A stretch of 64,000 bases of DNA from Myxococcota bacterium. GTDB taxonomy: Bacteria > Myxococcota_A > UBA796 > UBA2385. Positions 17,265-64,000 of this stretch are shown here, piece after piece. The stretch is taken from the NCBI GenBank assembly GCA_942491145.1, contig CALOBC010000015.1, positions 52,707 through 116,706 on the forward strand, given 5' to 3'. The number at the start of each line of letters is the position of its first letter. The first letter of the stretch is position 1. Under the pieces are notes generated by a model. The model did no database searches. It saw only the letters and a program-made list of their open reading frames with translations, and had not been told where the DNA came from. A program made the position numbers and the translations under genes.

Positions 17265-17344
17265 GGGGGGCCTCGGGACCCGTGGGCGTCGCGCTGTGCA
17301 CCGGGTCCGAGGGGATCGACCGCCGGGTGGGTGGCGGGTTCCCC

Positions 17345-17416
17345 GAAATCTGCAATTGCGTGCAATTTCCTGCGAGGGCGTGCAATTTGGTGAAAGACGG
17401 GGTGGAAATTGCACGC
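17345..17416. promoter_or_regulatory. Cluster of TGCAATT repeats (3 direct, 1 inverted) in a divergent intergenic region
   Basis: TGCAATT occurs at 17351, 17361 and 17381, spaced 10 and 20 bp. GCGTGCAATTT occurs at 17358-17368 and 17378-17388, with its exact reverse complement AAATTGCACGC at 17406-17416. This is a locally AT-richer patch. Confidence 0.4.
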
Positions 17417-17806
17417 AAGGGACCATCGGCAGTGTGGCCGGGTCGAGGGTCGCTTGTGTCAGGACGGTGTGCTGAGTGCCGTTCAGCACGATGTCTTCGC
17501 GGATCCCCACGCATTGGCGGGGTCCGATCGCCGGGCAGGTGTGGTGCCGTTGCGCGACGCTCCACAACCTTCGACCGGCCGCCCGGGCCGCTGTGCAGGC
17601 CTGCGACCCTGGTGGCCGCCGCGCTGCAGAGGTTGGGGTTGGGCTCGGTCTCGCGGGCCCGTCGGGTTGGCGAGGTGCCGCTTGATTTGTCCAGCGGGCC
17701 AAAGGGACCCGCCTCCATCGCGTCCGTGGGGCCGGTCAGAGCGCCGCGCATCGTCGGTCTGCAACGTCCGGAATATGCCCCCGGCATCGCCTCTCTCCGC
17801 CACACC

Positions 17807-20800
17807 ATGATGCTGCTGGCCAGCGCTGTCCTGGGCCGCTTCCTGGTCGGCGGCTTGGTCTTGGGCTGGATCGGAGCGGCCCATGCCCACCAGCCCGTCA
17901 AGGGGGTGCTCCAGGCCCTCACGACGGAAGACGGGCTGCCCATCAATTGGGTGGCAGCGTTTCTGCAAGACCCGGATGGGGCGCTGTGGATTGGCACCGA
18001 CAGTGGGCTGGTCTGGTACGACGGGGTCGAGTCTGCGGAGGTCCCTGAGCTCGACGGAGTGAGAATTCTCCAGCTCAATATGGATCCCCGCGGGGTCGGT
18101 TGGATCGCATCGAGGGAGACGCTGTGGCGGCTGGACGACGGTGTGTTTCAGCGCGTGCCGATGGAGCCACCGCACCGCGGCATGCCGCTGCACGTGGACG
18201 GAACCGGTGAGGTCTGGATCTCCGGTGATACCGGGTTGACCCGGGTCGACGACCCCAACCGGCACTTGGACACCCCCGATGGCTGTGGGCAGGTTGAGGT
18301 CGGCCAGGGGGCGAGCCTGTGGTGCGCAGGCAGTGGGGTCCCCTTGGCATTGGAGGATGGCGTCTTGCGGGTGTTGCGAGACGTCGCCGGTGCGCCCCTC
18401 CCTGGACCCGAGCTGCTCCGAGACAGCCGCGGCATCAGCTGGGTCCACACGCCCGGTCGTGTTCACCGATATATCCGGGAGGCAGGGGGCTTTCGGGAGC
18501 TGGAGGTTCAGGAGGCGCTGGCCGTCGAAGCGATAGGCATCCTCGAGGCACGCTCCGGCGAGATCTGGATCAACACCGATGACCACAGGGTGCTGGTGTG
18601 GGACGGAGTTGCGCTGCGGGAGCACGCCCGCCTGCGGTCCACCGTTCGCGCGCTCTATGAGGACCGGGAGGGCAGCATCTGGGCGGCCACCCGAGGCCTC
18701 GGAGCGCTCCGGCTGAGCTCGCCCCAGAGCTTCTCGGTGCTGGACAGTGGCTTCGGCGAGGCACCGGTCTGGACCTCGATGGTCACGTCGAGCGGTTCCC
18801 TCATCTTGGCCACCGATGACGGGGTGTTCCAGCGTTCACCATCAGGGGAAATACGCGCTTTGCCCGGGATTGCGAAGGCCTCGGTGTATGCCTTGCATGT
18901 CACCGACGACGGCTCCGTGCTGGTGGGTGGCTACGATGGACTGCACCGATGGACGGGGGAAGCGATGGAGCGCCTGGCCTTTGCTGAGCCTGGCGTGCTG
19001 CTGCGGGGCGGTGTGCTTGAGGACCGCGCTGGACGCATCTGGGCGGGGGGCAGGTACGCCATCTGGCGTTCCGAGGGGCGGGACCAACCGCTGGCGCGTC
19101 TGCCCCTGCCGGTGGAGCTGGGCACCGGCTACCCGGTGGTGGGACCCATTGTGGAGGATCCTGACGGCCAGGTGTGGGCTGCGACAAACGCTGGACTGAT
19201 CCGCTGGGGGGCCGCGGGCGTCGAGGTGTTCAACTTGGGGCCGGTTCGGGGCGTCGCGGTGGGACCCAAAGGGAAGGTCTGGGCGACCCTCGCGAGGGGC
19301 GGCCTCGTCCGGGTGGTGGACGGCGTGGTCCAAGAGCTCGGCGCCGCCCAAGGAATTCCCTCGGGGACCTTACACACCGTGGCCTTCGACAACCACGGCT
19401 CGGTGTGGCTGCCCAGCAACCGCGGGGTGTTTCGCACGAGCGCAGAGGGCTTGGACGCCCTGGCGAGTGACCCGCAGCGAACACTGTTTTTCCACACCTA
19501 CGGCGTCGAGGATGGACTCCCCAGCCTCGAGTGCAACAGCGGCCACCCCGCTGCCATGGTTGACGGGCAGGGTCGAGTCCACATCCCGACCATGCGCGGG
19601 CTGGTGCAGGTGGATCCGGGCGAGCTGCGCCGGGACATGGCTGCACCGGTGGTCACCATTCGACGGGTGGAGGTCGACGGCGAAGCGGTGCCTTGGAACG
19701 GGACCTTGGTGTTGCCCCCCCACGCCCGCTCGCTGGCCATCCACTACTCAGCCCCGGCGCTGCGCGATCCCGCTGGGGTCACCTACCGTTATCGCCTGGA
19801 GGGACACCAAGACGACTGGGTCGAGGCCGAGCGGCGGCGGGTGGCCTTCTGGACCAATCTTGAGGCGGGTACCCACACCTTCCGCCTGCAAGCGCGGAGT
19901 GGCGAGGGGGTGTTGAGCGCCGAAGATGCACTTCTGCCGTTCACTGTGGAAGCCCGACTGGTGGACCGAACCTGGTTTCGGCTGCTGGTTGGCCTCGGGG
20001 TCCTGGCGTTGGGCGCCGTTCTCGTCCGAGTTCAGCTTCACCGCATCCGAGAGCGAGAGCTCACGGCGCTGGTCGATGAACGGACCGCTGAGCTGCGTGC
20101 TGCCCGGGATCGCAGCCGTGAGCAGGCTGCGCGACTGCAGACTCAGGCCCACGAGCTGGAGAAGGTCGATGCCCGCAAGACCCGCTTCTTCGCCAACGTC
20201 AGCCATGAGCTGCGGACGCCGCTGTCGCTCATCCGAGGCCCAGTGAGCGGTGCGCTGTCCTCGGGCCAGTCGCTGGGTCCGGTCGACCTGGCGCGAGTAG
20301 CCCGAAGTGCCCATCGTCTCGAGGTTCTCATTGAGGAACTGCTCGACATCGCGCGGCTTGACGCCGGTCGCTTGCCCCTGCGGGCTCGGGAAGCGGACCT
20401 TGCCGGGTTTGTGGCCGAGCGGGTCGACGCATTTGCCCCGCTGGCCGAGCAGCGGGGGGTGGACCTGAGCTTGGGCAGCGTGCCCGTCACCGCATGGTTC
20501 GACGAAGCACGCCTCGCAAAGGTCGTGGACAACGTGGTGGCGAACGCACTGCGCCACACGGCCGCCGGGGGCACAGTCGATGTGCGCCTGACCACCACGC
20601 CCACCCACGGGTGCATCGATGTGCAGGACTCGGGCAGTGGCATCGCCCCCGAGCACCTGCCCCACATCTTCGACCGCTTCTACCAAGCCCCCGACGGCTC
20701 GGGCGCGTTGTCGGGCAGCGCGGGCCTCGGCCTCGCCTTGAGCCGGGAGCTGGCGCGGCGCCACGGGGGGGAGCTGACGGCACACAGCGAGGTGGGTGCG

Positions 20801-21703
20801 GGCAGCTTGTTCACGCTGCGGCTGCCGCTGGGTCGAGACCACTTGGCCGATGAGGACGTCATCGTGGGTGTCGAGCCGCCCCGCCCGACAGCGCCAGTGA
20901 TCCCCATTGTGCTCCCGGAGGCCGAAGACGCAGCTGCGGCGACGGCGACGGCGACCGTGCTTGTGGTGGAGGACGATGAGGAGCTGCGGTCCTGGATCTG
21001 CCAGGTTCTCCGAGCGCGGTACACGGTGCTGGAGGCCGGGGACGGCGGACAGGGGCTGCAGCTCGCTCGGGCCCACGTGCCCGATGTGGTGCTCACCGAC
21101 GCAGTGATGCCCGTCATGAGTGGGCTGGAGCTGTGCCGTGCGCTGCGCGACGATCCAGCCACCTGCCACCTGCCGGTCGTCATGCTGTCGGCCCGCAGCG
21201 AAGCGGACCGGCGGGTCGAGGGTCTCGCCAGCGGTGTGGATGCCTACCTGGGCAAGCCCTTTCATCCGCACGAGCTGCTGCTTCAGCTCGACAACCTGCT
21301 GGTCGCCCGGTCTCGTCTGCGCGCCCGGCACCACCGCCAGCTCGTCATGGCCGATGACACGCCCGAGCAGGCTTCGGTGGATGATCGATTCCTTGCCCAA
21401 GTGCGCGAGGCCATCCACGCCCACCTGCCCGACGAGGACTTTGGTGTGCGGGGGCTGGCGGACGCGGTCTCCCTCAGCCGGCGACAGCTCGGTCGCAAGC
21501 TGGATGCCCTGATCGGCCAGCCTCCGTCGACCCTCATCCGCCAGATCCGCCTGCAACGGGCCCGCGCGTTGTTGGAGCAGGACGCGGGGAGCATCTCCGA
21601 GGTCGCCTACGCAGTGGGGTTCCGTCGCCCGGGGCGCTTCAGTGAGCAGTTCAAGGCGGAGTTCGGCATGACCCCCACCGAGTTCAAGGCGAGCCAGGGG
21701 TGA
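17807..21703 (+). CDS. Hybrid two-component system: periplasmic propeller/Y_Y_Y sensor, HisKA-HATPase, receiver, AraC-type HTH
   Basis: ATG at 17807 opens a signal/TM segment (MMLLASAVLGRFLVGGLVLGWIGAAHA). About 730 aa of repeated G.(V/L)W.GT..GL propeller-like blades follow, then a TM segment (LLVGLGVLALGAVLV). Next come the H-box SHELRTPLS, a REC domain (VLVVEDDEE...LTDAVMP) and a C-terminal AraC HTH. Confidence 0.8.
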   Translation: MMLLASAVLGRFLVGGLVLGWIGAAHAHQPVKGVLQALTTEDGLPINWVAAFLQDPDGALWIGTDSGLVWYDGVESAEVPELDGVRILQLNMDPRGVGWIASRETLWRLDDGVFQRVPMEPPHRGMPLHVDGTGEVWISGDTGLTRVDDPNRHLDTPDGCGQVEVGQGASLWCAGSGVPLALEDGVLRVLRDVAGAPLPGPELLRDSRGISWVHTPGRVHRYIREAGGFRELEVQEALAVEAIGILEARSGEIWINTDDHRVLVWDGVALREHARLRSTVRALYEDREGSIWAATRGLGALRLSSPQSFSVLDSGFGEAPVWTSMVTSSGSLILATDDGVFQRSPSGEIRALPGIAKASVYALHVTDDGSVLVGGYDGLHRWTGEAMERLAFAEPGVLLRGGVLEDRAGRIWAGGRYAIWRSEGRDQPLARLPLPVELGTGYPVVGPIVEDPDGQVWAATNAGLIRWGAAGVEVFNLGPVRGVAVGPKGKVWATLARGGLVRVVDGVVQELGAAQGIPSGTLHTVAFDNHGSVWLPSNRGVFRTSAEGLDALASDPQRTLFFHTYGVEDGLPSLECNSGHPAAMVDGQGRVHIPTMRGLVQVDPGELRRDMAAPVVTIRRVEVDGEAVPWNGTLVLPPHARSLAIHYSAPALRDPAGVTYRYRLEGHQDDWVEAERRRVAFWTNLEAGTHTFRLQARSGEGVLSAEDALLPFTVEARLVDRTWFRLLVGLGVLALGAVLVRVQLHRIRERELTALVDERTAELRAARDRSREQAARLQTQAHELEKVDARKTRFFANVSHELRTPLSLIRGPVSGALSSGQSLGPVDLARVARSAHRLEVLIEELLDIARLDAGRLPLRAREADLAGFVAERVDAFAPLAEQRGVDLSLGSVPVTAWFDEARLAKVVDNVVANALRHTAAGGTVDVRLTTTPTHGCIDVQDSGSGIAPEHLPHIFDRFYQAPDGSGALSGSAGLGLALSRELARRHGGELTAHSEVGAGSLFTLRLPLGRDHLADEDVIVGVEPPRPTAPVIPIVLPEAEDAAAATATATVLVVEDDEELRSWICQVLRARYTVLEAGDGGQGLQLARAHVPDVVLTDAVMPVMSGLELCRALRDDPATCHLPVVMLSARSEADRRVEGLASGVDAYLGKPFHPHELLLQLDNLLVARSRLRARHHRQLVMADDTPEQASVDDRFLAQVREAIHAHLPDEDFGVRGLADAVSLSRRQLGRKLDALIGQPPSTLIRQIRLQRARALLEQDAGSISEVAYAVGFRRPGRFSEQFKAEFGMTPTEFKASQG

Positions 21704-22141
21704 CGGCGGCCGCCAGGTGTGCCTGGGGACTGGGCCGCGCCTGAGCTGGAGCAGGCTGGTGGGACCCGCGTCTTGGGGTCTCGTTGGTGAGCTGCGTGTG
21801 GTTGCCGGACCGGTCGGATGTGGATCGGCGCAGCAGGTTCGAAGGGCTCCTCCTTCGGCGCATGGTGCGGGGGCTGCTGGCAGGGCGCTGCAGCCTGGGG
21901 CCACAGTTGGGCGTGCGCCAGGCGGGGCAAGCTCGATCCTCCCCGCTGGCACTGCCGTCGATCTCATGCCCCATGTCGAGCCCATTCAGGGCCCAGTGTA
22001 CCCCGGCTCGGGACATCGCTTGGCCAGTTTGGGGACATGGACAGAATCCAGCCAAGTTCGTCCCACCCCACACCCAGGGCTGGTCGTAGAACTCATGCAT
22101 CGCCGCCGACGCGGCATCACCCCCACCCCAAAGGAGAGACC

Positions 22142-22192
22142 ATGAAGACCAAGACCCGCGTGAAGGCTGGCGGACAGCTCACGAACATCTGA
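22142..22192 (+). CDS. Mini-ORF A1: 16-aa Gly-Gly peptide precursor MKTKTRVKAGG-QLTNI
   Basis: ATG follows AAGGAGAGACC. Fourteen of 16 third positions are G/C, and the ORF ends in TGA. It is identical to A3. Confidence 0.65.
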   Translation: MKTKTRVKAGGQLTNI

Positions 22193-22228
22193 GACCCTAC
22201 CCATCCACCCCCACCAAGAGGAAGGACC

Positions 22229-22278
22229 ATGAGACCAAGACCCGCGTGAAGGCTGGCGGACAGCTCACGAACATCTGA
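22229..22278 (+). pseudogene. Mini-ORF A2: same sequence as A1/A3 with a 1-nt deletion (ATGAGACC versus ATGAAGACC); frameshifted
   Basis: As written it reads MRPRPA*. The downstream 45 nt are identical to A1/A3 but have no in-frame ATG. Confidence 0.55.
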
Positions 22279-22314
22279 GACCCTACCCACCCATCCCCAC
22301 CAAGAGGAAGGACC

Positions 22315-22365
22315 ATGAAGACCAAGACCCGCGTGAAGGCTGGCGGACAGCTCACGAACATCTGA
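22315..22365 (+). CDS. Mini-ORF A3: 16-aa peptide MKTKTRVKAGG-QLTNI
   Basis: ATG follows AGAGGAAGGACC. The sequence is nucleotide-identical to A1. Confidence 0.65.
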   Translation: MKTKTRVKAGGQLTNI

Positions 22366-22401
22366 GACCCTACCCACCCATCCCCACCATGAGGAGAGAC
22401 C

Positions 22402-22455
22402 ATGAAGACCAAGTCTAAGATGAAGGCTGGCGGCGTCGTCTGGGACGGCAGCTAG
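22402..22455 (+). CDS. Mini-ORF B1: 17-aa peptide MKTKSKMKAGG-VVWDGS
   Basis: ATG follows GAGGAGAGACC and the stop is TAG. The peptide is conserved with B2 although the flanks are unrelated. Confidence 0.65.
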   Translation: MKTKSKMKAGGVVWDGS

Positions 22456-22471
22456 CGCTTCCCCGGGCTCT

Positions 22472-22500
22472 CTGAACTGTTCAGGCAGTTCCTGGAACTG
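22472..22500. promoter_or_regulatory. Two adjacent palindromes between mini-ORFs B1 and B2
   Basis: CTGAACtGTTCAG lies at 22472-22484 and CAGTTCCtGGAACTG at 22486-22500. GAACTG (22474-22479) can also pair with CAGTTC (22486-22491). Confidence 0.3.
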
Positions 22501-22545
22501 TCCCCGTGTTCGAGCACCAACCCACCCAAGACCACTGGAGAACCC

Positions 22546-22599
22546 ATGAAGACCAAGTCCAAGATCAAGGCTGGCGGCGTCGTCTGGGACGGCAACTGA
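22546..22599 (+). CDS. Mini-ORF B2: 17-aa peptide MKTKSKIKAGG-VVWDGN
   Basis: ATG follows TGGAGAACCC and the stop is TGA. It differs from B1 by TCT/TCC (synonymous), ATG/ATC and AGC/AAC. Confidence 0.65.
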   Translation: MKTKSKIKAGGVVWDGN

Positions 22600-22605
22600 G
22601 ATCTC

Positions 22606-22643
22606 CCCAGGGCCCCTCCGACCGAGTCGGGGCGGGCCCTGGG
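22606..22643 (+). terminator. GC-rich stem-loop immediately after the last mini-ORF
   Basis: CCCAGGGCCC (22606-22615) pairs with GGGCCCTGGG (22634-22643). An inner CTCCGAC/GTCGGGG stem has a 3-nt loop, giving about 17 bp with one bulge. There is no T-tract, which is common in high-GC genomes. Confidence 0.55.
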
Positions 22644-22824
22644 ACCGTCCGTCTGGCGGCACCCCCATCCAGCGCCCCACGCCGTGGGGTTTCTGTTCCT
22701 CCCTCACGCTGCGCGCGGGGGAGGTCTGTGCGTCTTGGGTCTGGTGGACGGGTCCACTGATGGATTGCGCGGCCCGTTGACATCGGTCCGGGGCGTCGGG
22801 CACTCTCATTTGGACGTGTGTCGC

Positions 22825-22851
22825 GAGAATGACTGTCTAATCAGTGTTCTC
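22825..22851 (-). terminator. Imperfect hairpin about 27 nt downstream of the ABC operon stop
   Basis: GAGAA..ACTG-tctaat-CAGT.TTCTC in an AT-richer patch at the convergent junction. The stem is weak and there is no U-tract. Confidence 0.2.
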
Positions 22852-22877
22852 GGGCTGATTCCGAAAGGGCTGGCACC

Positions 22878-24980
22878 TCAAGGATGGGCGATCACCACCA
22901 ACGCCTCCGCCCTTCGCTGCACTGTGGCCATGGCTCGGCGAAGGCTGGCTGGGTCCAGCGCAGCAAAGCTCTCATCCAGCACGATGACGTCGGAGTCCTG
23001 AAGCAAGGTGCGGGCGATGTAGAGCCGGCTCTTCTCGCCATGAGACAGCCGCCAGCCGGTCTCGCCCACGAGCTGCATCAAGCCGCCGGGCATGCGCTCA
23101 ATGAGCCCACCGAGGCCCAGCTCTTCGCAGATGGTCTGTGCGAGGGCAATGTCGCTGGGCGCTGGCGGCCACGCACGACCCATGAGCAAGTTGAACAGAA
23201 AGGTGTTGGCCAGCACGTGGTTGTCGTGGAATTGGGGCGCACAGCTTGTGACCCGACGCCAGCCCGCTTCGCCCAAGGTGGCGCGGTCCAAGCCGCCGCT
23301 GAGCACCAGGCCCGCCGAGGGTGCCCGCAAGCCGAGGAGCACCGCAGCGAGTGTGGACTTGCCGCCGCCTGAGCTGCCCGTGAGCAGGATCCGATCCCCG
23401 CGCTGGATGGTCAGCGAGCAGCCCCGGAGCACGGGCGCACCGCCGGGGTAGGCGAAGTCGACCTTGCGCACCGAGAGGAGCCCGTCGGTCGGCGCAGCGA
23501 TGACCTGGGCATTGGCCTCGCCGTGGGTGATGGGGCGGCCGGCAGCATCGTAGAGCGGGCGGACCTGGGAGACGGCCACCACGGCCCCCGACAGCTGGGT
23601 CATGCCGAGTGACAGGGCGTGCAGCGCCCGGCCGGCGAGCAGCACCCCCCCGAGGGCGACGGCGATGCGGGTGGACGACGCCCCGAAGACCAAGAGCTGG
23701 CCTACGCCGGCGAGCCCCACGAGCATCCACCCCCGAGGCAGGGTCACCCGGAGGTGCGCGGCCGTGGCATCCAGCGCCGCCGAGGCCCTGAGATAGGCGC
23801 TCAGTTCGTGGTCTTCACCATCGTGGTGCCGTTCCGGGGGTTCCTGGGCGAGGCGGGTGCGGTGGCCGGCCATGCGCTCCACAAGGGAGCCCGTCATGGA
23901 GAGGCGTGCGGCTGTCCACACGCGGTGGTGGCGGAGGTGGCGAGTGCCGACAAGGGCCAGAGTGCCGATCCAGCCGAGCAACAACAGGGGCAGCATTGGG
24001 CCGCCAAGGGAGAGCACCCACGAGGCGCCCACCAGCTCCAGCAGCGCCAGGGCCGCGGCCACCCCACCGCTCAGCGCGAGCTGCTCCATGGCCTCGGCCT
24101 CGTTGACCCGGCCCATGGTCAGGCCAATGCCATCGCTGCGGCACTCATCGGGCTGCATGCGCAGCGCCCCGACCAACAACCGGCGCTTGAGGAGCGCCCC
24201 GCCTTCAATTGCCAGCACTCCCTGTGCCCAGGTGGTGAGCTGGCGCAGCGGCACCGTGGTGAGCAGCAGCAAACCCCAGGCGAGCAGCCAGCCCGACTGC
24301 AGCGCTCCGTCCAGCGCCGCCTTTCCCACAAGAGCCCATGCCAACACGAAGATGACGTACTGGGTGAGATGGGCGACAGCGACCACCCCACCCTGGCGCA
24401 GCAACTTTGACTCCTTGAGCTGAGCGGTCAAGCTGGCTGACGGGGGCAGCCTCAGCATCCACAAGCCCGAACAGGGGGCACCAGCGAGGCGCTCGGCCAA
24501 GAGGGCCCGCCGGGCGCGGTCTCTTCGGCGCCCAGGGGGCACAGTGCCGTCGAGCAGGGCGTCGATGCCCGGTCCAAAGCGGTCTTCGAGGGGTGCGGAG
24601 AGGGCCGCGCGGAGTGCTTCCACAGCCACCCGCTGGCGACGGCCGTCCGGGCCAATGAGGGTGGCTTGGCGGCCGCGACGACCGACTGATGCGAGCAACA
24701 GCAGGCGCTTTGGTCCCGGTTCGGGGAGCATGAGCAGGGCGGGCGCGACGTGCTGGAGGGCGTGGGTGAGGTCCCCGTACGCGGCGACCAGCGGCTCCAC
24801 TTCCAGGCCCGCCCGCCCGGCGGCCACGTCGAGCCAGTCCTCCAAGGCGCCGTCGGGGAGGGCACCGGGGGGATCTGCGATCCGGGTCGGGGCCTGCCCC
24901 CCGTACCCACCGTGCGCGGCGAGCACATTGAGGGCTTGGCCGAGGTTAACGACAGACCACTGGCACGGGTCCAGACTCAT
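22878..24980 (-). CDS. ABC transporter permease/ATPase, the second ABC of the export cassette; no C39 catalytic motifs
   Basis: The ATG overlaps the upstream stop (ATGA). It has Walker A GSSGGGKST, signature LSHGEKSR and Walker B VIVLDESF. A roughly 170-aa N-terminal extra domain lacks the Cys/His peptidase motifs. Confidence 0.8.
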   Translation of the reverse strand: MSLDPCQWSVVNLGQALNVLAAHGGYGGQAPTRIADPPGALPDGALEDWLDVAAGRAGLEVEPLVAAYGDLTHALQHVAPALLMLPEPGPKRLLLLASVGRRGRQATLIGPDGRRQRVAVEALRAALSAPLEDRFGPGIDALLDGTVPPGRRRDRARRALLAERLAGAPCSGLWMLRLPPSASLTAQLKESKLLRQGGVVAVAHLTQYVIFVLAWALVGKAALDGALQSGWLLAWGLLLLTTVPLRQLTTWAQGVLAIEGGALLKRRLLVGALRMQPDECRSDGIGLTMGRVNEAEAMEQLALSGGVAAALALLELVGASWVLSLGGPMLPLLLLGWIGTLALVGTRHLRHHRVWTAARLSMTGSLVERMAGHRTRLAQEPPERHHDGEDHELSAYLRASAALDATAAHLRVTLPRGWMLVGLAGVGQLLVFGASSTRIAVALGGVLLAGRALHALSLGMTQLSGAVVAVSQVRPLYDAAGRPITHGEANAQVIAAPTDGLLSVRKVDFAYPGGAPVLRGCSLTIQRGDRILLTGSSGGGKSTLAAVLLGLRAPSAGLVLSGGLDRATLGEAGWRRVTSCAPQFHDNHVLANTFLFNLLMGRAWPPAPSDIALAQTICEELGLGGLIERMPGGLMQLVGETGWRLSHGEKSRLYIARTLLQDSDVIVLDESFAALDPASLRRAMATVQRRAEALVVIAHP

Positions 24981-27571
24981 GGCTGGTCCTCGACCAAAAT
25001 GCCGTCATTCAAGGACACATTGCGCCAGTCCATGCCGGCCCAGGATGCGCCTTGCAGCGCTGCCTCCGCGTCCATCAGCTGCCGGTAGCGAGAGGGGCCC
25101 GCGAGGAGCTCCGCGGGGGGAGCGGCCTCGACCACCCGGCCGTCTTCGACCACCAAGACTTGGTCAAACCCGAGGGTGTGGTCGATGTCATGGGTGATGC
25201 ACAGCAGCGTGGCGTCTCTCCAGTGGCGTCGGGCCACACCGAGCAGCGCCCGGCGCCGGTCCCGGTCCAGCCCCCGAAAGGGCTCGTCGAGAATGGCCAG
25301 TCGTGTGGGGCCCCGACTGAGCGCTCGGCCGAGGCGCACCCGCTGGCCCTGTCCGCCGGAGAGCCGTCCGCCCCCCTCCCCGAGGGAGGTCTGCAGTCCG
25401 TCGGGGAGGCGATCGAGGACGTCCATGAGGTCGGCGTCTTGGAGGGCCTGCGCGACTGATTGTTCCGGCGGTGCGCCATAGCGGAGGTTGTCGAGGAGGG
25501 ACCGGTTCCAGAGCTGGACCTCGGGGTCCACCCAGGCCGTGCACCGTCGGAGCGCCGCCACCCGCGCGGGGTCCAGGGCTTCCTGGTTCACCGAGAGGGT
25601 GCCGCTGGCTGGGCGGTGCCACCCGAGCAGCAAGCCCGCCAGACTGGACTTGCCCGAGCCCGAGGAACCCACAATGGCGACATGACAGCCCGCGGGAATG
25701 TTGATGTTTACGTTGTTCAGGATGGTCTGTCCGCCGGCCACCACCGACAGGGCTTCGGCCTGGATGGCCACCGCGCCGTTGCCGGGCAGCGTCCCTGGTG
25801 CGTCGGCAGCACTCGCCGACTCCGGCGCCAGAAGTGGCTCCAGCAGGCGCAACAGCACACTGCGCATGGCCGGGTATTGGCGGGTGGCCACGGCCACTTG
25901 CTGACCGTAGGCTGGAAGCGCGAGCGCCCAATAGATGAGCAGCAACCCGCCCTGGTCAGCGGCGAAGAGGGCGACCAAGCTGGCCGCCACCGCAAGGCCC
26001 ACGCTGGCGATGAGACCCTCGAGGAGGACCGCGGTGCGCTGCAGGGAGAGGCCCGCGTGGCCCCACTCCACCAGCCGGGCCGCGTGCTCCCGTCGCAGCG
26101 CTCGCTCGGCCCCGTGGCTGCGAATGGCTGCGAGGCCCAGCAAGGCGTCGAGGTAGAAGCGGCTCAAGGCACCGAGGTGCGCTCGCTGACGCAGGTCCTG
26201 CTCGGCCAGGAGGGGATGGCAGAGCAGCGGCAAGCCCACTGCGACCACCGCCGCGAGCAGTGCGAGGGGGGCCGCGGCCGGTGCCAGCCAGATGATGCCC
26301 GCAGTGGTCAGCACGAGGCGGGCGACGCCCTGAAGCAAGCTCTGGCCCGCCTGGGGCACCCGTCGCAGCAAGTGTGTGGCGTGGCTGCGCTCGGCCATGT
26401 CCGAGATGAGGCGGCTCTGGAAGTAGTGGTCCGGGAGCCGAGGCAGCTTCGTCATGAAGGCCAGACGAAGTCGAGCATCGAGGGCCCGCCCGGAGTCGAG
26501 CACGCCACGGGTGACTTGCAGCTCCAGGAACACACCCACCGCCACCAGCGTGATGACGGCCGCGAGGGCACCGACTTGGTTGAGGGGCACCGGCATCAGG
26601 GTGCCGAGCTCCAGCAGCCCCCGCAACAGCAGTGCTTCGAGGAGCACCGTGATCGCCGAGACAGCGAGCGCCCCCACCAGCACGGCGGGCGCGAGCAGCC
26701 CGTCCTCGGCCAAGTACCTTCCCAAGGACCGCAGGGGTGCAGGCTCGGGCTCGCTCAAGGCAGCACGCAGCTCGGGGCCCAAGCTGGCCTCGTCCACGTC
26801 GGCCCGTCCGCTGGCCCGTACCAGCACTGCGCCGCGGAGGAGGAGCTGAGGGTCCCCCTCTTCGTCGGGCTCGGTGGGCTGCACCGACCACGCACTGGGG
26901 GAGATGGTGGATGGTTCAGCCACGAGCTTGACCAAGGCCCCGTGGGCTTCTGCGCCCCGCCTTAGACCGCCAGCGGCGACCACCGAAGCCACCATGCGGG
27001 TGGCTGCGTCTAGGCGGGCGAGGCCACCCCAGCTGGGATCGGCCAGCGCGGAAGCGCTCAGTGCTGCGGCGTCTTCGCCACCGATGGCCCGCAGACGGGC
27101 GTGAAGCGTCGCCTGGAACTCCTGGTCGCCGGCCCACTCCCGCCAGTCGGCCGCCGGCACTGGCAGGCTGTGCTTGTAGAGCAGGTCGAGCAGGTCGCTT
27201 CGGCGCAACCAGCGTCGGCCCACCGCCGGGTCCATCACTTGGACGAAGGGGCCCACTACCGACCAGACCACCACGAAGTGGGAGACCCCGCTGGGCGTGC
27301 GGATGACCACAATGGCGGGCAGTGCGTGGGCCTCGGGCAGCAGCACGTGGTCTGCTGGGAGCATCACCTCTTCGCACGCCAAGCCAAGCTGGGTGGCCAC
27401 CTCTTCCATTGCGGAGATTGATGTGCCGTCCACGTCCGTCTGGCAGGCTTCCCGCAGGCGGGCGTAGCTGACAGGCAGGTGGAAGCCGGCGAGCAGCGCG
27501 GTGAGGGCGGCCGGCCCGCAGTCCATGCCGGAGGTCTGGATGACCTCGGGAACCAGTCGGCGGGCGCTCAT
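24977..27571 (-). CDS. Peptidase-containing ABC transporter (C39 double-glycine peptidase, TMD, NBD)
   Basis: The ATG at 27571 overlaps the HlyD stop (ATGA). C39 triad contexts are GMDCGPAAL (Cys), VSHFVVVW (His) and VMDPAVG (Asp). It also has Walker A GSSGSGKSS, signature LSGGQGQR and Walker B LAILDEP. Confidence 0.85.
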   Translation of the reverse strand: MSARRLVPEVIQTSGMDCGPAALTALLAGFHLPVSYARLREACQTDVDGTSISAMEEVATQLGLACEEVMLPADHVLLPEAHALPAIVVIRTPSGVSHFVVVWSVVGPFVQVMDPAVGRRWLRRSDLLDLLYKHSLPVPAADWREWAGDQEFQATLHARLRAIGGEDAAALSASALADPSWGGLARLDAATRMVASVVAAGGLRRGAEAHGALVKLVAEPSTISPSAWSVQPTEPDEEGDPQLLLRGAVLVRASGRADVDEASLGPELRAALSEPEPAPLRSLGRYLAEDGLLAPAVLVGALAVSAITVLLEALLLRGLLELGTLMPVPLNQVGALAAVITLVAVGVFLELQVTRGVLDSGRALDARLRLAFMTKLPRLPDHYFQSRLISDMAERSHATHLLRRVPQAGQSLLQGVARLVLTTAGIIWLAPAAAPLALLAAVVAVGLPLLCHPLLAEQDLRQRAHLGALSRFYLDALLGLAAIRSHGAERALRREHAARLVEWGHAGLSLQRTAVLLEGLIASVGLAVAASLVALFAADQGGLLLIYWALALPAYGQQVAVATRQYPAMRSVLLRLLEPLLAPESASAADAPGTLPGNGAVAIQAEALSVVAGGQTILNNVNINIPAGCHVAIVGSSGSGKSSLAGLLLGWHRPASGTLSVNQEALDPARVAALRRCTAWVDPEVQLWNRSLLDNLRYGAPPEQSVAQALQDADLMDVLDRLPDGLQTSLGEGGGRLSGGQGQRVRLGRALSRGPTRLAILDEPFRGLDRDRRRALLGVARRHWRDATLLCITHDIDHTLGFDQVLVVEDGRVVEAAPPAELLAGPSRYRQLMDAEAALQGASWAGMDWRNVSLNDGILVEDQP

Positions 27572-28734
27572 TCGGGAGACGGCAGAAGGCGCTGCCCAGC
27601 GGCCCGCAGTGCGAGGGCGGCGGGGCTCAGCCGCTCCAAGTCCACTTCGACGACCCCCGGCAAGCCATGGGCGAGCGGAATCTGGGAGGGCGCTGCGGTC
27701 GGATCCAGCTCGAGCTCTATTCGAAGGCCACTGGCATCGGGCTCGCTGGCGACGGCGGTGACACGGACGGGGACCATCCCGAACTGGCTCCACGGAAAGC
27801 CATCCAGCCGCATTCGGCCCTCGGCACCCGGGGTGATGCGGCCTGCCACAACGAGGGGAAAGGTTGCGACGGCATGCAGCGTGTCGACGGGCACCACTGA
27901 GGCAACCGGTGCTCCTTTCGACACTCGCATGCCTTGTGCCAGCATTGCGAGAGCGCCCACAATGCCGTCGCTGGGGGCCAGAATGCGGTGTCGCCCGACG
28001 GCACCATCGAGGGTGTCCCGTCGGGCCTCGCAGGCGCGGAGGTCGGCAGCCTGGGCCGCCGCGTGGCCTTGGCTCACCACCACATCGACCTGGCGGTCCA
28101 GGCTTGTGGCGCTGGCGGACCCGCGCTGGTGTTCGACAATCCAGGCCCGGGCTTGGGCTTCAGCCTGACGCTGCCTTGCCTCCCCGACCCGTGCCGCCAC
28201 CTCCGCCTCGGGGGCGGTCCCTTCGATGCCCAGGCGGGCCGCACGGTCGGCATCTTGGGTGGCCAGCTTCGCCACCTCGTCCGCCGCGCTGGCGCTGCGA
28301 AGAGCTCCTTGGACGGCGGCATCGCCGGAAGAGGCCGCCGCAGCCCGGGCTGCTTCTTGCACCGAGACCGCAGCGTTGGCGGCCCGGGCTTGCTCCCGGA
28401 TGCTCTCGCAGCGGCTGGTCTCGGCCGCGAGGGCGAGCACGGCGTCGGTGTCATCGAGCTGGATGAGCAGATCGCCAGCCTGCACCGCCTGTCCCAGTCC
28501 CACCGCGACGCGCACCACCACGCCGTCGAATGGCGCGCTGAGCTGGCGGGGATGGCCAGTGGACTCCAGGCGAGCTTGCGTGGAGGCCGCCTGGATGGGC
28601 ACTTCCGCGAAGAAGAACCACGCCGACCAGCCGGCCAGAAGGCCCATTCCCAGGACGGCGAAGCCGGCCGTGGCCAAGCGGTGCAGGCGGTCGCGGTGGA
28701 GCGCTCGGAGGGTCTGGGAGAAGGCAGACGGCAT
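27568..28734 (-). CDS. HlyD-family membrane-fusion / secretion adaptor protein
   Basis: Probable ATG at 28734 (MPSAFSQTL...). It has an N-terminal TM segment (FAVLGMGLLAGWSAWFFFA), a long Ala-rich coiled-coil, and a C-terminal beta-barrel motif (ILAPSDGIVGAL...GAPVASVVP). Confidence 0.8.
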   Translation of the reverse strand: MPSAFSQTLRALHRDRLHRLATAGFAVLGMGLLAGWSAWFFFAEVPIQAASTQARLESTGHPRQLSAPFDGVVVRVAVGLGQAVQAGDLLIQLDDTDAVLALAAETSRCESIREQARAANAAVSVQEAARAAAASSGDAAVQGALRSASAADEVAKLATQDADRAARLGIEGTAPEAEVAARVGEARQRQAEAQARAWIVEHQRGSASATSLDRQVDVVVSQGHAAAQAADLRACEARRDTLDGAVGRHRILAPSDGIVGALAMLAQGMRVSKGAPVASVVPVDTLHAVATFPLVVAGRITPGAEGRMRLDGFPWSQFGMVPVRVTAVASEPDASGLRIELELDPTAAPSQIPLAHGLPGVVEVDLERLSPAALALRAAGQRLLPSPE

Positions 28735-28792
28735 GGCCGAACTGTACCGGATGGCGGCCGCGGGATGACAGCTTGAACCGGTAGTACGTTGT

Positions 28793-28808
28793 AGCACCTG
28801 TACTGCCG
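28793..28808 (-). promoter_or_regulatory. Sigma-54-like -24/-12 element upstream of the HlyD gene (weak candidate)
   Basis: The minus strand reads CGGCAGTACAGGTGCT against consensus TGGCACG-N4-TTGCW. GG and GC have the correct 12-nt register, and the element lies about 60 nt upstream of ATG 28734. There are three mismatches, and no enhancer-binding protein is in the window. Confidence 0.2.
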
Positions 28809-28836: not shown

Positions 28837-31203
28837 TCAGCCGCCGCCTTGTCCACCGCCGCCTTGACCGCCGCCGCCTTGACCGCCGCCGCCTTGACCG
28901 CCGCCGCCTTGACCGCCGCCGCCTTGACCGCCGCCGCCTTGACCGCCGCCGCCTTGACCACCGCCGCCTTGTCCACCGCCGCCTTGAGGTCCACCACCCC
29001 CGCCGCCTTGTCCGCCGCCGCCTTGTCCGCCGCCGCCTTGACCACCGCCGCCTTGACCGCCGCCGCCTTGACCGCCGCCGCCTAGACCGCCGCCGCCGTG
29101 TCCACCGCCGCCTTGACCGCCGCCGCCTTGACCGCCGCCGCCCTGAGGTCCACCACCCCCGCCGCCTTGTCCACCGCCGCCTTGAGGTCCACCACCGCCG
29201 CCGCCTTGTCCACCGCCGCCTTGAGGTCCACCACCGCCGCCGCCTTGTCCGCCGCCCTGGGGTCCTCCCCCACCTTGGCCACCACCGCCCCGGTTGCCAC
29301 CACCTTGCGGCCGGTCCTGGCCCGAGCCTCCCTCCGGCTCCTCTTCAGCTTCCGGACTGGGCTCCGGCTCCAAGCGCCGCAGCGGAGCCCGATAGCCAGC
29401 CGCGCCCCACGGCAAGCTGGCCACGATCAGCTCGTCCACCACCGCGACGTCCACCGCATCGGGCACCCGCCACGCCGGCTCACCGTCGGCCCACAGACCC
29501 ACCGCGCCCCGGTCGGTCTGCACCACCGCGCCCCCGGTCCACGTCACAATGCTCCGCACCTGGGCCCCCACATCCACCGGGCCGATGCCCCCTGGCGGCT
29601 GGACAAAGCGGCCCGAGATCATCCATCCCACCAGCGGTGCGCCCGGCGGCGGGGGACTGCCCACCGAGTCCAGCGGGCCTTCGGTCTGCCAAGTCACCAG
29701 CCCCTTGCCGGCGCCCAGGTGGCCCCCTTCGAACACTGCCTCGGCGCGTTGGCCGGCCACCACGATCTCGTACGAGCTGCGCTCCGTCAGCCGAATCGAC
29801 TGGACCGGCCCCGGCAAGGCGATCTCTTCGGGACGGTGGCCCTTCGAGCTGTTGCGCAGCAAGCGATGGCCGAGACCGAGCACAATGCTGCCGTCGACGT
29901 CGATCAGCATGTCTGAGCCGGGCCCCGGTGTGCGCTTCCAACCTGGGGTCAGCTCCGGTGCGCTCGCCACGGCGTGCAGGGGGTCCGCGGCGCCCGCCAG
30001 CTTCACCAGATCATCGCGGATCAGCACGGTGCTCGGTCGGCCGCTGCGCTCCCCCACCAGCATCCCATCCGCGTCGGTGTAGACCACCGTGGCTCCCGCT
30101 GTGGGGGCCACTTGGAGGGAGGGCTGGCTCACCAGACGCAGCCCCTCCACGCACGGAGTCCGGCTGCGCTTGAGCTGACGCAGGCGCAGGTCCCACGCTG
30201 CGAGCTGGGCCGCGTCTGAGGCGACCAGGATCACCCCCCCGTGGCACGCCGGAGCGCCGGGATCTCCCATCCACGCCTCGGGCCCGTCCGCCGGGAGGGG
30301 CTGGAGCACGACGGCCAAGGGGGCGCCCACGTCGGCCACGATGGACCGATTCACCATCACAACCTTGGGCTTGTGGCCCTCCCACCGGCCGGGTGCTTCG
30401 GTGTCTTCGGGGTCGCTCTCGGGCATGCCGAGCGCCCAGGTGCGCAGAATGTCACCGGTGCGCCATGCGGCCAGGCGGGCCTGTTCCAGCTCCCAGCCGG
30501 CCGCCACCGCCAGGGTGGAGGGCAAGGGGGTGCCGGTGGTGCAGCGGGACGCGTCCATGCGCCCCAGCAGCAGGGCATCGCTGAAGGGCCAGCGGTCGAC
30601 CGGGGGCAACAGCGGGCAGCCGGTGGTGGGGTCCAGCGCCAAGCGGGCACTGCCGAAGTTGATCGCCAGCGCGCCGTCTTCGGTCCATGTGGGCCGGTCC
30701 ACGGGCAAGGTGCGAGACGCGGCCCCTCGGGGGTCCACCCGCAGCACGCTGCCCGGCTGAAGCACCCACACCACGCCATCTTCGTCAATGCGCACATCGA
30801 GCGGTGGCGTGCCCAAGGACTGCACAACCGGGGGCTGATCGCCGTGGACCCGCATGATCTGGCCGAGCCACTGGGGGCCCTCCCGTCGACCGGACCACAC
30901 CACACCCACGCCGTCCCGCACGACGCCACCCAGGACGGTGCCACCGATCCGGGCCACCTCCTCCAGCCGTTTTGTGCCGAGCCAGACCGCGCCGCCGGCA
31001 TCCACAGCCAGCGTGGACTCGCCCCGCTGCTCCGTGAGGATCGCGGACTTGAGCACACGGGCGCGCGACGCCGCTTGGCTGGGCGCACCCCCAAACCCCC
31101 CGAGCCCCGCGAGGACCAACATCCGCAGCGTCCGAGCCGCCGTTCGTTGCGGTCTCTGGCGTCCCACCGAGGGCGCGGCGGGCTCCACCGAATGCACACC
31201 CAT
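28837..31203 (-). CDS. Secreted 788-aa protein: propeller-like N-terminal region plus a C-terminal (GGGGQ)n low-complexity tail of about 160 aa
   Basis: ATG at 31203 follows AGGAGA. The N-terminus is signal-like (RMLVLAGLGGFGGAPSQAAS). Repeated G.VW motifs occur (GAVWLGT, GVVWSG, GVVWVLQ). The frame runs continuously into the Gly/Gln repeat. Confidence 0.6.
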   Translation of the reverse strand: MGVHSVEPAAPSVGRQRPQRTAARTLRMLVLAGLGGFGGAPSQAASRARVLKSAILTEQRGESTLAVDAGGAVWLGTKRLEEVARIGGTVLGGVVRDGVGVVWSGRREGPQWLGQIMRVHGDQPPVVQSLGTPPLDVRIDEDGVVWVLQPGSVLRVDPRGAASRTLPVDRPTWTEDGALAINFGSARLALDPTTGCPLLPPVDRWPFSDALLLGRMDASRCTTGTPLPSTLAVAAGWELEQARLAAWRTGDILRTWALGMPESDPEDTEAPGRWEGHKPKVVMVNRSIVADVGAPLAVVLQPLPADGPEAWMGDPGAPACHGGVILVASDAAQLAAWDLRLRQLKRSRTPCVEGLRLVSQPSLQVAPTAGATVVYTDADGMLVGERSGRPSTVLIRDDLVKLAGAADPLHAVASAPELTPGWKRTPGPGSDMLIDVDGSIVLGLGHRLLRNSSKGHRPEEIALPGPVQSIRLTERSSYEIVVAGQRAEAVFEGGHLGAGKGLVTWQTEGPLDSVGSPPPPGAPLVGWMISGRFVQPPGGIGPVDVGAQVRSIVTWTGGAVVQTDRGAVGLWADGEPAWRVPDAVDVAVVDELIVASLPWGAAGYRAPLRRLEPEPSPEAEEEPEGGSGQDRPQGGGNRGGGGQGGGGPQGGGQGGGGGGPQGGGGQGGGGGGPQGGGGQGGGGGGPQGGGGQGGGGQGGGGHGGGGLGGGGQGGGGQGGGGQGGGGQGGGGQGGGGGGPQGGGGQGGGGQGGGGQGGGGQGGGGQGGGGQGGGGQGGGGQGGGGQGGG
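28840..29300 (-). repeat. 15-bp tandem repeat (plus-strand unit GCCGCCGCCTTGACC) encoding (GGGGQ)n
   Basis: About 30 units are present, including a run of about 7 perfect copies at roughly 28860-28960. Variants encode GGGGGGPQ, GGGGH and GGGGL. Confidence 0.9.
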
Positions 31204-62796: not shown

Positions 62797-64000
62797 TCAG
62801 GCGTCCATCAGCCGCTTGAGGGTCTGGACAAACGATGCCCGCAGTGCCTCGCGCTGTGGGTGTTGTCCGTTCTGGACCACCGGTTGCCCGCCGACCACGA
62901 GCGAGTGCAGGGCATCCCGGGCGTCGGCGAAGATGTAGCTGTCCAGGCACGTGTCGCCGTGGCGCCCCACCATCGCAGGGTGGTCTGGGTCCAGCGTCAG
63001 CAGGTCGGCCCGATGCCCCACGGCGATGCGACCGCAGGCTTGCCCCAGCGCTTGGGCTCCCCCCGCCGCACAGGCCCGCCAGAGTGCGCCCCCCGTGGAC
63101 CGTCCGCCCCCGGGACGGCACAGGTTGCGTCCACCCCGAACCAAGCGCTGGCCCAGCTCCAACAGGGCCAGCTCATGGGGTGCGCTGCGGCCGACGTGGC
63201 TGTCGGTGCCGACACCCATGCGGCCACCGTGGTGGAGGTAGTCCTCCAGCGCGAAGATGCCGTCGCCGAGGTCGGCTTCGGTGGTGGGGCACAGGCCGAG
63301 CACCCCGCCAGACCGGGCGAGGTCCCGCCGCTCCTGGGGGTTGGCGTGGGTGCCGTGCACCAAGCACCACCGGTCGTCCACGGCGACATGGTCCAGCAAC
63401 CACGCGATGGGCGGCTGGCCCGACCACGCCACACAGGCCTCGACCTCGCGGGGTTGCTCGGCGATGTGGATGTGCAGGGGTGCGGACTCGCTCATGGACC
63501 GCACGACCTGGACCACTTCCTGGAGGGCCGCCGGCGGGACGGCCCGCAGGCTGTGGGGCGCGACACCCCAGGCCCCGTCCGGGTCGTCGGCAACGGCCGC
63601 CTGCACACCCTCGACGATGTTGAACAGTCCAGCGAGGTCGTTGAGGAAGGGGCGCTGGGGTTCCTGGGCGGGGGCCCCCCCAAAGTCGGCGGTCTGGTAC
63701 AGCACCGGCATCATCGTCACACCGATGCCGGCCGCACGAAAGCCCGTCAGCACGGCCTTTGCGGTCTCGGCGCGGTCGGCGTAGGGGCGCCCGTCGGGCT
63801 GGTGGTGCAGGTAGTGGAATTCCGCGACCCGGCTGAAGCCTCCCTCCAGCATCTCCACGCCCAGCCAGGCGGCGATGTGGTGCAGGTCGTCCGGGTGGAG
63901 CTTGCCGACGAAGCGGTACATGACCTCACGCCACGTCCAGAAGCTGTCCGACGTGTCGCCGGCGGTCTGGGTCAGCCCGGCCAGGGCCCGCTGAAAGGCG
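62797..64000 (-). CDS. hutF: Formimidoylglutamate deiminase-like amidohydrolase; N-terminus outside window
   Basis: The frame is open to the window edge. APHSLRAV, LHIHIAEQPREVEAC, RWCLVHGTH, GLCPTTEADLGDG and GVGTDSH blocks match HutF-type amidohydrolases by eye. Confidence 0.65.
   Translation of the reverse strand, partial: AFQRALAGLTQTAGDTSDSFWTWREVMYRFVGKLHPDDLHHIAAWLGVEMLEGGFSRVAEFHYLHHQPDGRPYADRAETAKAVLTGFRAAGIGVTMMPVLYQTADFGGAPAQEPQRPFLNDLAGLFNIVEGVQAAVADDPDGAWGVAPHSLRAVPPAALQEVVQVVRSMSESAPLHIHIAEQPREVEACVAWSGQPPIAWLLDHVAVDDRWCLVHGTHANPQERRDLARSGGVLGLCPTTEADLGDGIFALEDYLHHGGRMGVGTDSHVGRSAPHELALLELGQRLVRGGRNLCRPGGGRSTGGALWRACAAGGAQALGQACGRIAVGHRADLLTLDPDHPAMVGRHGDTCLDSYIFADARDALHSLVVGGQPVVQNGQHPQREALRASFVQTLKRLMDA

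Follow-up and report, generated by a model that had tools for sequence, protein, structure and literature searches.

What is encoded in the interval between a large hybrid sensor gene and a convergent ABC (ATP-binding cassette) operon on contig CALOBC010000015.1 of a Myxococcota bacterium? The whole stretch of 64,000 nucleotides that was analysed, called the window here, carries at positions 22142-22599 of its plus strand five head-to-tail mini-ORFs (short open reading frames) of 16-17 codons, four of them intact and one with a 1-nt deletion. They are located between the stop codon of the sensor gene (21703) and the convergent operon (from 22878), which encodes a HlyD-family adaptor and two ABC exporter subunits and is referred to below as the export cassette. 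A reading made from the letters alone (the sequence-only reading) had taken the mini-ORFs for genes of small peptides with a conserved leader and a variable tail. Two questions are raised by this arrangement, namely whether the mini-ORFs are genes at all and, if so, what would become of their products.

When the array was re-read from the sequence, all five units were found where the sequence-only reading had placed them, the copy with the 1-nt deletion included, and the description of the flanking genes, a hybrid histidine kinase/receiver/AraC gene on one side and the convergent ABC operon on the other, was also right (Table 1). In copy 2 the deletion brings the frame of the ATG to a stop after 6 codons; this copy is either a pseudogene or the result of a sequencing error. 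Each ATG of the array is preceded at 3-4 nt by a Shine–Dalgarno sequence (GGAGAGA, GGAAGGA or GGAGAA), which confirms the purine-rich motifs noticed before. The first three copies make up an 87-bp tandem repeat of 95% identity. In copies 4 and 5 the similarity is limited to 61 nt comprising the Shine–Dalgarno sequence and the ORF (92% identity), within which TCT is replaced by TCC, ATG by ATC, AGC by AAC and the stop codon TAG by TGA; their flanks are unrelated, as had been said. Pooled over the mini-ORFs, the G+C content of third codon positions (GC3) is 0.86, similar to that of the adjacent genes (0.77-0.84) and in line with the G/C-rich third positions pointed out earlier. The leader pattern occurs four to five times in the 64-kb window, always inside the array, and found 0 matches in 100 dinucleotide-preserving shuffles of the window.

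The mini-ORFs were also said to be hidden from the 60-aa ORF list of the window. This is true in general but not for copy 1, the frame of which is open upstream as far as 21818 and thus forms part of a listed 124-aa ORF. We rejected this upstream extension because of its non-genic composition (GC3 0.65, and 0.72 at second codon positions) and the position of the Shine–Dalgarno sequence. At the other end of the array, the strong hairpin that had been proposed after the last stop codon is a GC-rich one of 17 bp (22606-22643), and no plus-strand gene follows. A second hairpin of 7 bp with a U-rich tail is found at 22674-22690, and a 104-nt stretch of the array 3′ region has a folding energy of −56.3 kcal/mol (z = −3.0). 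No RNA family of Rfam was matched at E ≤ 1 over positions 21600-23000. A scan for the sigma-70 promoter consensus 5′ of the array gave nothing, a result of no informative value for this high-GC organism.

Table 1. Positions in the window of the array units, the probable transcript end and the neighbouring genes
Feature	Position	Strand	Remarks
Hybrid sensor gene	17282..21703	+	1473-codon ORF immediately upstream of the array; true start probably 3′ of 17282
Mini-ORF 1	22142..22192	+	MKTKTRVKAGGQLTNI*; Shine–Dalgarno sequence AAAGGAGAGACC immediately 5′
Copy 2 of the QLTNI unit	22229..22278	+	ATGAGACC replaces ATGAAGACC; one A missing in codon 2
Mini-ORF 3	22315..22365	+	MKTKTRVKAGGQLTNI*, same as copy 1
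Mini-ORF 4	22402..22455	+	MKTKSKMKAGGVVWDGS*
Mini-ORF 5	22546..22599	+	MKTKSKIKAGGVVWDGN*
Probable end of the array transcript	22606..22690	+	two hairpins
Second ABC exporter subunit	22878..24980	-	700 aa, without active peptidase; apparently degenerate C39-like N-terminus
ABC exporter subunit with N-terminal C39 peptidase	24977..27571	-	likely start MSARRL at 27571
HlyD-family periplasmic adaptor	27568..28797	-	first cassette gene; start uncertain

Relatives of the mini-ORFs are found in many other genomes (loci and proteins are designated by L and P numbers). Seven loci of homologues of the second ABC subunit were collected without reference to the peptides. One of them (L001) contains MKVKTKVKAGGMAWAG and MKVKTKVKAGGHSWAG upstream of the cassette. 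In locus L004, from an 11-Mb genome, (M)KVKKTRIKAGG[SQ]K[LT]W[SA]G is encoded four times, each time with a GTG start and a Shine–Dalgarno sequence; the copies show synonymous differences and are followed by a terminator. Nine mini-ORF copies lie downstream of the cassette in L038, and in the transporter-anchored loci L040 and L042 a single ORF of 134-169 aa contains four or five in-frame repeats of the motif. The transporter-anchored locus L005 harbours an odd 32-aa ORF, MKTKPKIKDGRAPIIVVCQTPLPICATRVAGR (L005:7079-7177), between the HlyD and C39-ABC genes of a cassette that is otherwise devoid of family peptides; this ORF may represent a family member that has decayed or diverged.

Two pattern scans at the DNA level extended the search. 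The first covered one genome per species and required the leader together with a W-x-G tail; ten of the 32 stretches that it returned are clear family arrays, and their carriers are Pirellulaceae, other Planctomycetota, Anaerolineae, Ardenticatenaceae, Blastocatellia and a deltaproteobacterial metagenome-assembled genome (MAG). MKGKKxxKAGGTT of Limnohabitans and Rhodoferax and MKGKAIAKAGGRMVRRQ of Latescibacterota were set aside as not demonstrably members of the family. In Latescibacterota MAGs we also observed a conserved ORF, M/VK[GV]KAIAKAGG[RQ]MVR..., at a syntenic locus without the cassette (L008:2003, L009:3473, L023:5300, L028), which is either a distant relative or an unrelated short ORF. 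The second scan applied the leader-only pattern to metagenomes and gave at least 120 loci, mostly from soil and rhizosphere, against an estimated ~10 chance matches; among the matches listed, 157 family ORFs are held by 85 of 120 loci. After removal of nested ORFs, duplicate loci and likely false positives, the transporter-anchored loci and both scans together yield at least ~211 ORFs in ~101 loci, with one to nine copies per array. These and the following family counts include the metagenome matches listed and are to be read as minimum values. With carriers among Planctomycetota, Chloroflexota and Acidobacteriota, a deltaproteobacterial MAG and soil metagenomes, the mini-ORFs of the window are members of a large family that spans several phyla of soil bacteria and has escaped annotation.

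This family argues that the mini-ORFs are coding. The start codon, the Shine–Dalgarno sequence, the frame and the early stop recur in ~100 independent loci, which represent several phyla; synonymous differences are seen among paralogues, and some relatives repeat the unit in frame within a single longer ORF. The conservation between neighbouring copies is confined to the Shine–Dalgarno region and the leader: over 102 adjacent paralogue pairs the median identity is 0.82 in the leader and 0.55 in the Shine–Dalgarno region, against 0.28 in the upstream and 0.30 in the downstream flank. A Shine–Dalgarno-like motif precedes 190 of 215 ORFs. The case for coding is thus built on the excess of matches over chance, on Shine–Dalgarno sequences and early stops, both of which lie outside the search patterns, on extra copies beside the seeds, on the synonymous differences among paralogues and on this identity profile. 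We consider it almost certain that the five units are genuine conserved coding genes, as the sequence-only reading had claimed.

The alternative that they are not genes, the array being a non-coding DNA or RNA element or the 230-aa antisense ORF (22117-22809, minus strand) being the real gene, can draw on the simple 87-bp repetition of copies 1-3 and on the length of the antisense ORF, which is called as a protein in the public record (P0246, 100% identical). Yet this ORF has a GC3 of 0.60, compared with 0.77-0.84 in real genes, matches no Pfam or NCBIfam model and, among 1.84 billion representative proteins, matches only itself; its other matches are multi-stretch alignments to long proteins, which we read as low-complexity. 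The sequence-only reading would have been contradicted by orthologous loci that conserve the antisense ORF and lose the mini-ORF frames. The opposite was found, in that the antisense ORF lacks any other homologue and only the Shine–Dalgarno sequence and the ORF are conserved across loci, with variation at third codon positions and with the stops kept; the absence of an Rfam match likewise speaks against an RNA element. A non-genic origin is contradicted by this comparison and very improbable, and the locus appears to be mis-annotated, a spurious antisense ORF having been called and the five mini-genes left unannotated.

The layout of the peptides is uniform at one end and highly variable at the other. 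The N-terminus of the family reads M-K-[V/I/T]-K-[T/S]-x-[V/I/L]-K-A-G, with K2, K4, K8, A9 and G10 near-invariant in 212 distinct ORFs among the matches listed. Residue 11 is Gly in 141, Ala in 23 and Ser in 7 of them (171/212, 81%). All copies in the window carry A-G-G at the end of the leader, that is Gly-Gly at positions 10-11. The G-[G/A/S] junction agrees with the canonical −2/−1 rule of double-glycine processing sites, although G10 was partly fixed by the design of the search. The mini-ORFs start with ATG, GTG or TTG and have a modal length of 16-17 aa; precursors range from 13 to 20 aa, and the predicted product would comprise 4-10 aa in most members. The tails have a median of 8 residues after K-A-G, and no fewer than 194 of 211 are distinct. 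The division into a conserved leader and a variable tail, which had been deduced from five copies, is thereby borne out by a first decapeptide that is nearly invariant across phyla.

Despite their hypervariability the tails fall into recurring classes, and relatives of both tail types of the window occur at other loci. QLTNI resembles MKVKTQIKAGGQISGI, present in four copies beside a cassette in L158 (Q[IL][ST][GN]I), and SLTSI (L105), and VVWDG[SN] resembles YSWDGT (L033), F[TS]WSN (L092, L156) and IAWTG (L149). A Trp, Phe or Tyr is found in 93 and a Cys in 22 of the 211 tails. In Planctomycetota/Pirellulaceae MAGs (L006, L013, L015, L016, L026, L030) the arrays are made of alternating pairs in which the tail of one peptide is of the form ...W-x-G and that of the other ...[F/Y]-x-G, MKVKTSVKAGGGRVWNG and MKIKTNVKAGGGSNFGG being such a pair; this is reminiscent of two-peptide systems. 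The leader MKVK[TS]SVK (positions 22142-22165 in the window) also resembles the way in which ribosomal protein bL36 begins (E. coli MKVRASVKK...); the family peptides gave no Ribosomal_L36 match in Pfam, and this likeness may be a coincidence or reflect a common preference for efficient translation starts.

In some relatives the units are fused. The polyproteins L040:4477-4986, L042:4119-4523 and P0121-P0125 consist of two to six in-frame units, each composed of [G]-L-K-V-K-T-x-[VI]-K-A-G-x, a short variable segment, N-H-N-E-T-L-V-R and a linker, and their genes are located upstream of an export cassette of the type found in the window. Intermediates with two units also exist (L116, L127, L129, L143, L152). 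No Pfam domain and no source name is attached to these proteins. A Gly precedes 23 of the 26 internal leaders, and internal leader repeats preceded by Gly imply that the chain is processed proteolytically at the unit boundaries.

The genes of the export cassette overlap by ATGA, both at the junction of the HlyD stop with the C39-ABC start and at that of the C39-ABC stop with the ATG of the second ABC gene. The C39 domain of the first ABC subunit is recognized by Pfam (Peptidase_C39, 72.6 bits), its catalytic Cys, His and Asp align with those of PCAT1, and the quartet Gln/Cys/His/Asp is conserved; the motif QTSAMDCGPA...THFVV is kept in 17 loci. To judge from these intact residues the peptidase looks active. 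The N-terminal domain of the second ABC subunit had no PDB match by sequence search. In a profile-profile comparison its ~125 N-terminal residues (24600-24980 of the window) align with a C39 domain (probability 86%, E 5e-6), with an Arg at the position of the catalytic His and the Cys region unaligned, and it looks like a degenerate C39-like domain. The exporter would accordingly be a heterodimer in which the peptidase domain of one subunit is active and that of the other is not. Homologues of this second subunit come from Acidobacteria, Planctomycetes and unnamed metagenome bins and are at most about 52% identical. The closest curated models are those of NHLP-type export proteins, all of them scoring far below their cut-offs (193.7 versus 853.3 bits for TIGR03796, 117.7 versus 709.4 for TIGR03797 and 22.6 versus 156.2 for TIGR03794).

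The peptide genes and this cassette tend to occur together. When the ORFs of 120 aa or more that lie up to 8 kb from ~100 arrays were all clustered, the two top neighbour families were the ABC (22 loci) and HlyD (20 loci) proteins among the matches listed, and 10 of the 31 metagenome loci with at least 3 kb of room contain the cassette. The sequence-only reading had suggested a pattern search in related genomes for co-occurrence with C39 transporters, and the HlyD/C39-ABC/ABC cassette is indeed the most frequent neighbour. L006, L016 and L026 repeat the convergent layout of the window; in L038 and L158 the array is found downstream of its cassette. After the ABC and HlyD families, the commonest neighbours belong to signal transduction: Ser/Thr kinases that carry PD40 beta-propellers (12 loci), ECF sigma factors, NB-ARC/AAA_16/TPR (STAND-TPR) proteins and response regulators of the RR-LuxR type. 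An ECF sigma gene is located within 400 bp of the peptide genes, in divergent orientation, in L043, L058 and L084. Pairs of an ECF sigma gene (PF07638) and a Ser/Thr kinase-PD40 gene were observed next to peptide genes, in many cases in divergent orientation to them, at L043:298-3861, L058:1863-5971, L084:1-2465, L055, L074 and L038:1017-4464.

In the interpretation that we favour, the five units would be translated mini-genes for minimal precursors of exported peptides. Their 11-residue N-terminus, M-K-[VIT]-K-[TS]-x-[VI]-K-A-G-G, would act as a very short Lys-rich leader of the double-glycine type. The cassette, made of the HlyD adaptor and a heterodimeric ABC exporter with one active C39 domain, would recognize this leader, the C39 domain would cut after G-[G/A/S] and the variable C-terminal tail would be exported. 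The predicted products of the window are QLTNI, VVWDGS and VVWDGN, each one Gly longer if the cut follows K-A-G; their calculated masses without modification are 587.33, 661.31 and 688.32 Da, the values given by the sequence-only reading being correct. This interpretation is founded on the G-[G/A/S] junction, the pattern of conservation in leader and tail, the linkage to an intact C39 exporter and the polyprotein relatives. Published work lends it some context, in that a leader's last 13-14 residues are enough for a C39 domain in vitro (PMC6363468). We would put the probability that the mini-ORF peptides are cleaved and exported by the cassette at about 0.65, with translation, cleavage site and export all judged from sequence features. 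That the tail rather than the leader is the active product is likewise something that we infer.

Several observations weigh against cleavage and export by the cassette. According to PMC6363468, a leader is recognized through hydrophobic side chains that a helix presents at −4, −7 and −12. The leader of the window type has Lys at −4, Thr or Ser at −7 and is too short to have a −12 position; it falls outside this known rule, and if it is a substrate, its recognition must differ. About two thirds of the arrays with enough flanking sequence have no cassette within reach, so that export in trans must be assumed for them. Such an assumption is plausible in view of two MAGs in which one array lies beside the cassette and another elsewhere (L006 and L015; L016 and L013). 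No peptide gene was seen at the transporter-anchored locus L039 and only an aberrant ORF at L005. In 19% of the members residue 11 is something other than G, A or S, and the polyproteins need a second cut that is not obviously explained by the Gly-Gly peptidase alone. Finally, codon-position entropy across the family has the expected third-position excess, but this statistic is partly circular: the search patterns fixed K2, K4, K8, A9 and G10, hence the first two positions of several codons, and the excess was not counted as independent proof.

Could the products be modified rather than simply cut and exported? The sequence-only reading had likened the layout to that of RiPP (peptide made by the ribosome and modified post-translationally) precursors. 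If the mini-ORFs encoded true RiPP precursors, the N-terminus would be recognized by a modifying enzyme encoded elsewhere and the products would bear, for instance, a Trp cross-link or a hydroxylation. A conserved leader with hypervariable cores is a hallmark of RiPPs, many tails possess a potentially reactive residue (W, F or Y in 93/211, Cys in 22/211) and precursor genes may lie far from the modification genes (Haft et al., PMC2887384). A gene for a Rieske [2Fe-2S]/LigXa_C oxygenase stands beside arrays in four loci (L088, L092, L119 at 5345-6916, L156), the tails of which contain Trp (F[TS]WSN, ...WW); this enzyme may modify the tails of a Trp subgroup. Across the family, however, no radical SAM, YcaO, LanM/LanB/LanC, ATP-grasp or P450 protein recurs within ±8 kb of ~100 arrays; it is exporters and signal-transduction genes that recur instead, and no modifying enzyme is found near the array of the window. 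The tail classes do not share a single modifiable residue, and QLTNI has neither an aromatic residue nor Cys. The strict sense of RiPP, implying post-translational modification, has thus found no support among the genes around the arrays, and we regard this alternative as unlikely. In a different scenario, the uncleaved 16-17-mer or its cationic N-terminus would itself be functional, as a micropeptide regulating a transporter or kinase or as a membrane-active peptide, with the tails being secondary. Across phyla the conservation of the N-terminus greatly exceeds that of the co-occurring transporter (~41-57% identical), as would be expected of a part with a conserved target of its own, and the departure of the leader from the canonical C39 rule as well as the many arrays remote from any cassette would be easily accommodated. 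It is difficult to reconcile with such a function that tail classes recur at unrelated loci (xxWxG, Q[IL][ST][GN]I, [IV]xxGD, ATNGDIHVGG), which reveals selection on the tails, that the G-[G/A/S] junction and the repeated polyprotein units point to processing, and that the strongest genetic link is to a peptidase-exporter. A function of the uncleaved peptide is therefore improbable in our opinion.

Short ORFs with a Shine–Dalgarno sequence might also be upstream or leader ORFs controlling a downstream gene by attenuation, and such a position, upstream of the cassette and with the same orientation, is indeed seen in L001 and L004. In L004, though, a terminator separates the array from the next gene; array and cassette converge in the window and in L006, L016 and L026, the array of the window having no plus-strand gene after it; in L038 and L158 the array is located downstream of the cassette. 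Multi-copy arrays with diversified tails are moreover unlike attenuators, which makes this last explanation hardly credible.

If cleaved and exported tails are indeed what the mini-ORFs provide, their hypervariability and multiple copies, together with the frequent sensor and regulator neighbours, point to a role in intercellular signalling and/or antagonism. The signal-transduction neighbours are suggestive in this respect, such genes being abundant in these phyla anyway. A more specific and rather doubtful version, which we put forward tentatively, is a peptide signalling system of linear 4-10-residue peptides that would have been overlooked in Gram-negative soil phyla and would be sensed by adjacent beta-propeller sensor kinases. 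The sensors would be either the Ser/Thr kinase-PD40 proteins with their ECF sigma factors or, in the window, the Reg_prop hybrid histidine kinase with its AraC output; 'pherotypes' specific to a strain or to kin would be provided by the hypervariable tails, and the carriers would be Acidobacteriota, Planctomycetota, Chloroflexota and Myxococcota-like lineages. The hybrid sensor of the window combines Reg_prop beta-propeller repeats, a Y_Y_Y domain, a transmembrane segment, HisKA/HATPase, a receiver and an AraC helix-turn-helix. It is a candidate regulator or sensor for the array, linked to it by position only; by tblastn it is not a recurring neighbour at other family loci.

Two other genes of the window deserve mention. 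A 788-aa ORF (28837-31203, minus strand) just upstream of the HlyD gene and on the same strand has a Gly-rich C-terminal part of ~170 residues of GGGGQ-type repeats; it matches no Pfam or NCBIfam model and is absent from the other family loci by tblastn. The gene for HutF (formimidoylglutamate deiminase; 62797-63921, minus strand) has a counterpart of 98% identity on other public contigs (P0126), indicating that a very close relative of this organism has been sampled elsewhere.

How does this family compare with known systems? With the double-glycine peptides exported by peptidase-containing ABC transporters (ComC-ComAB, class II bacteriocins, PlnA-type peptides, colicin V-CvaAB) it shares the small precursor, the leader ending in G-[G/A/S], the variable product and the genetic association with a HlyD-type accessory protein and an ABC exporter that bears a C39 Cys peptidase at its N-terminus. 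In the window a sensor kinase/regulator gene adjoins the array, in the manner of com, blp and pln loci; at other loci this gene is not conserved. In contrast to these systems, the leader has 11 residues instead of about 15-30 and is Lys-rich, with K alternating with V or T, and devoid of hydrophobic residues at −4/−7/−12; the whole precursor measures 13-20 aa, the exporter is a two-gene heterodimer, the hosts belong to Gram-negative soil phyla and no immunity gene is evident. PatS of Anabaena, a gene product of 13-17 aa of which a C-terminal penta- to octapeptide is the signal, is similar in gene size and in having a very short C-terminal peptide as the active diffusible product. There is no sequence similarity and no RGSGR here, and PatS is not known to have a conserved KxKxxxKAGG leader or to occur in tandem arrays. 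The polyprotein relatives, and they only, recall cyanobactin PatE and repeat-type graspetides by the conserved flanks KVKTxVKAG and NHNETLVR around a variable segment; they differ in that no PatA/PatG-type protease or ATP-grasp ligase is near, and the window has separate mini-genes.

The three-gene exporter cassette described for NHLP and Nif11 precursors by Haft et al. 2010 (PMC2887384), who predicted further peptide families from its wider distribution, has the same architecture. Like the NHLP/Nif11 systems with their NHLM cassette, the present one combines a HlyD-like protein, an ABC protein with and another without peptidase, and multi-copy precursors that are hypervariable after Gly-Gly and in part remote from the cassette. 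Whereas a leader of the NHLP or Nif11 type extends to about residue 70-83 and a classical one to about 24 (PMC2887384), the one found here has 11 residues and resembles neither NHase nor Nif11; the cut-offs of TIGR03794/TIGR03796/TIGR03797 are missed by a wide margin by the proteins of the window, and no cyclodehydratase or LanM gene is found near the array. Prochlorosins provide another case in which a single conserved leader serves a multitude of hypervariable cores and a genome has several precursor genes, in part remote from the processing genes, but they are lanthipeptides made by ProcM and have long leaders of the Nif11 type, whereas no modifying enzyme was found here. Searches of Pfam-A and NCBIfam with natural members of 21-28 aa and with concatenated members gave only noise (BH3, E 0.16; TfxA, E 0.28; DUF131, E 1.3). 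A full-text search of the literature for the leader motifs and the topic returned nothing relevant; most subscription journals lie outside its coverage, so this is absence of evidence only. We class the system as one of a known kind, a double-glycine peptide with a peptidase-containing exporter, and what is new is the short, Lys-rich and non-canonical leader, the precursors of 13-20 aa and the wide spread in Gram-negative soil bacteria.

If these are real exported peptides, their genes would be among the smallest precursor genes known, with 13-20 codons and a leader of 11 residues. A Lys-rich leader of this sort would widen what is known of C39 recognition and would represent a very compact export tag. 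It would also mean that a large peptide family is invisible to standard annotation. Its members are frequent in soil metagenomes, and the phyla Acidobacteriota, Planctomycetota and Chloroflexota are almost unexplored as regards their peptide chemistry and the communication between their cells.

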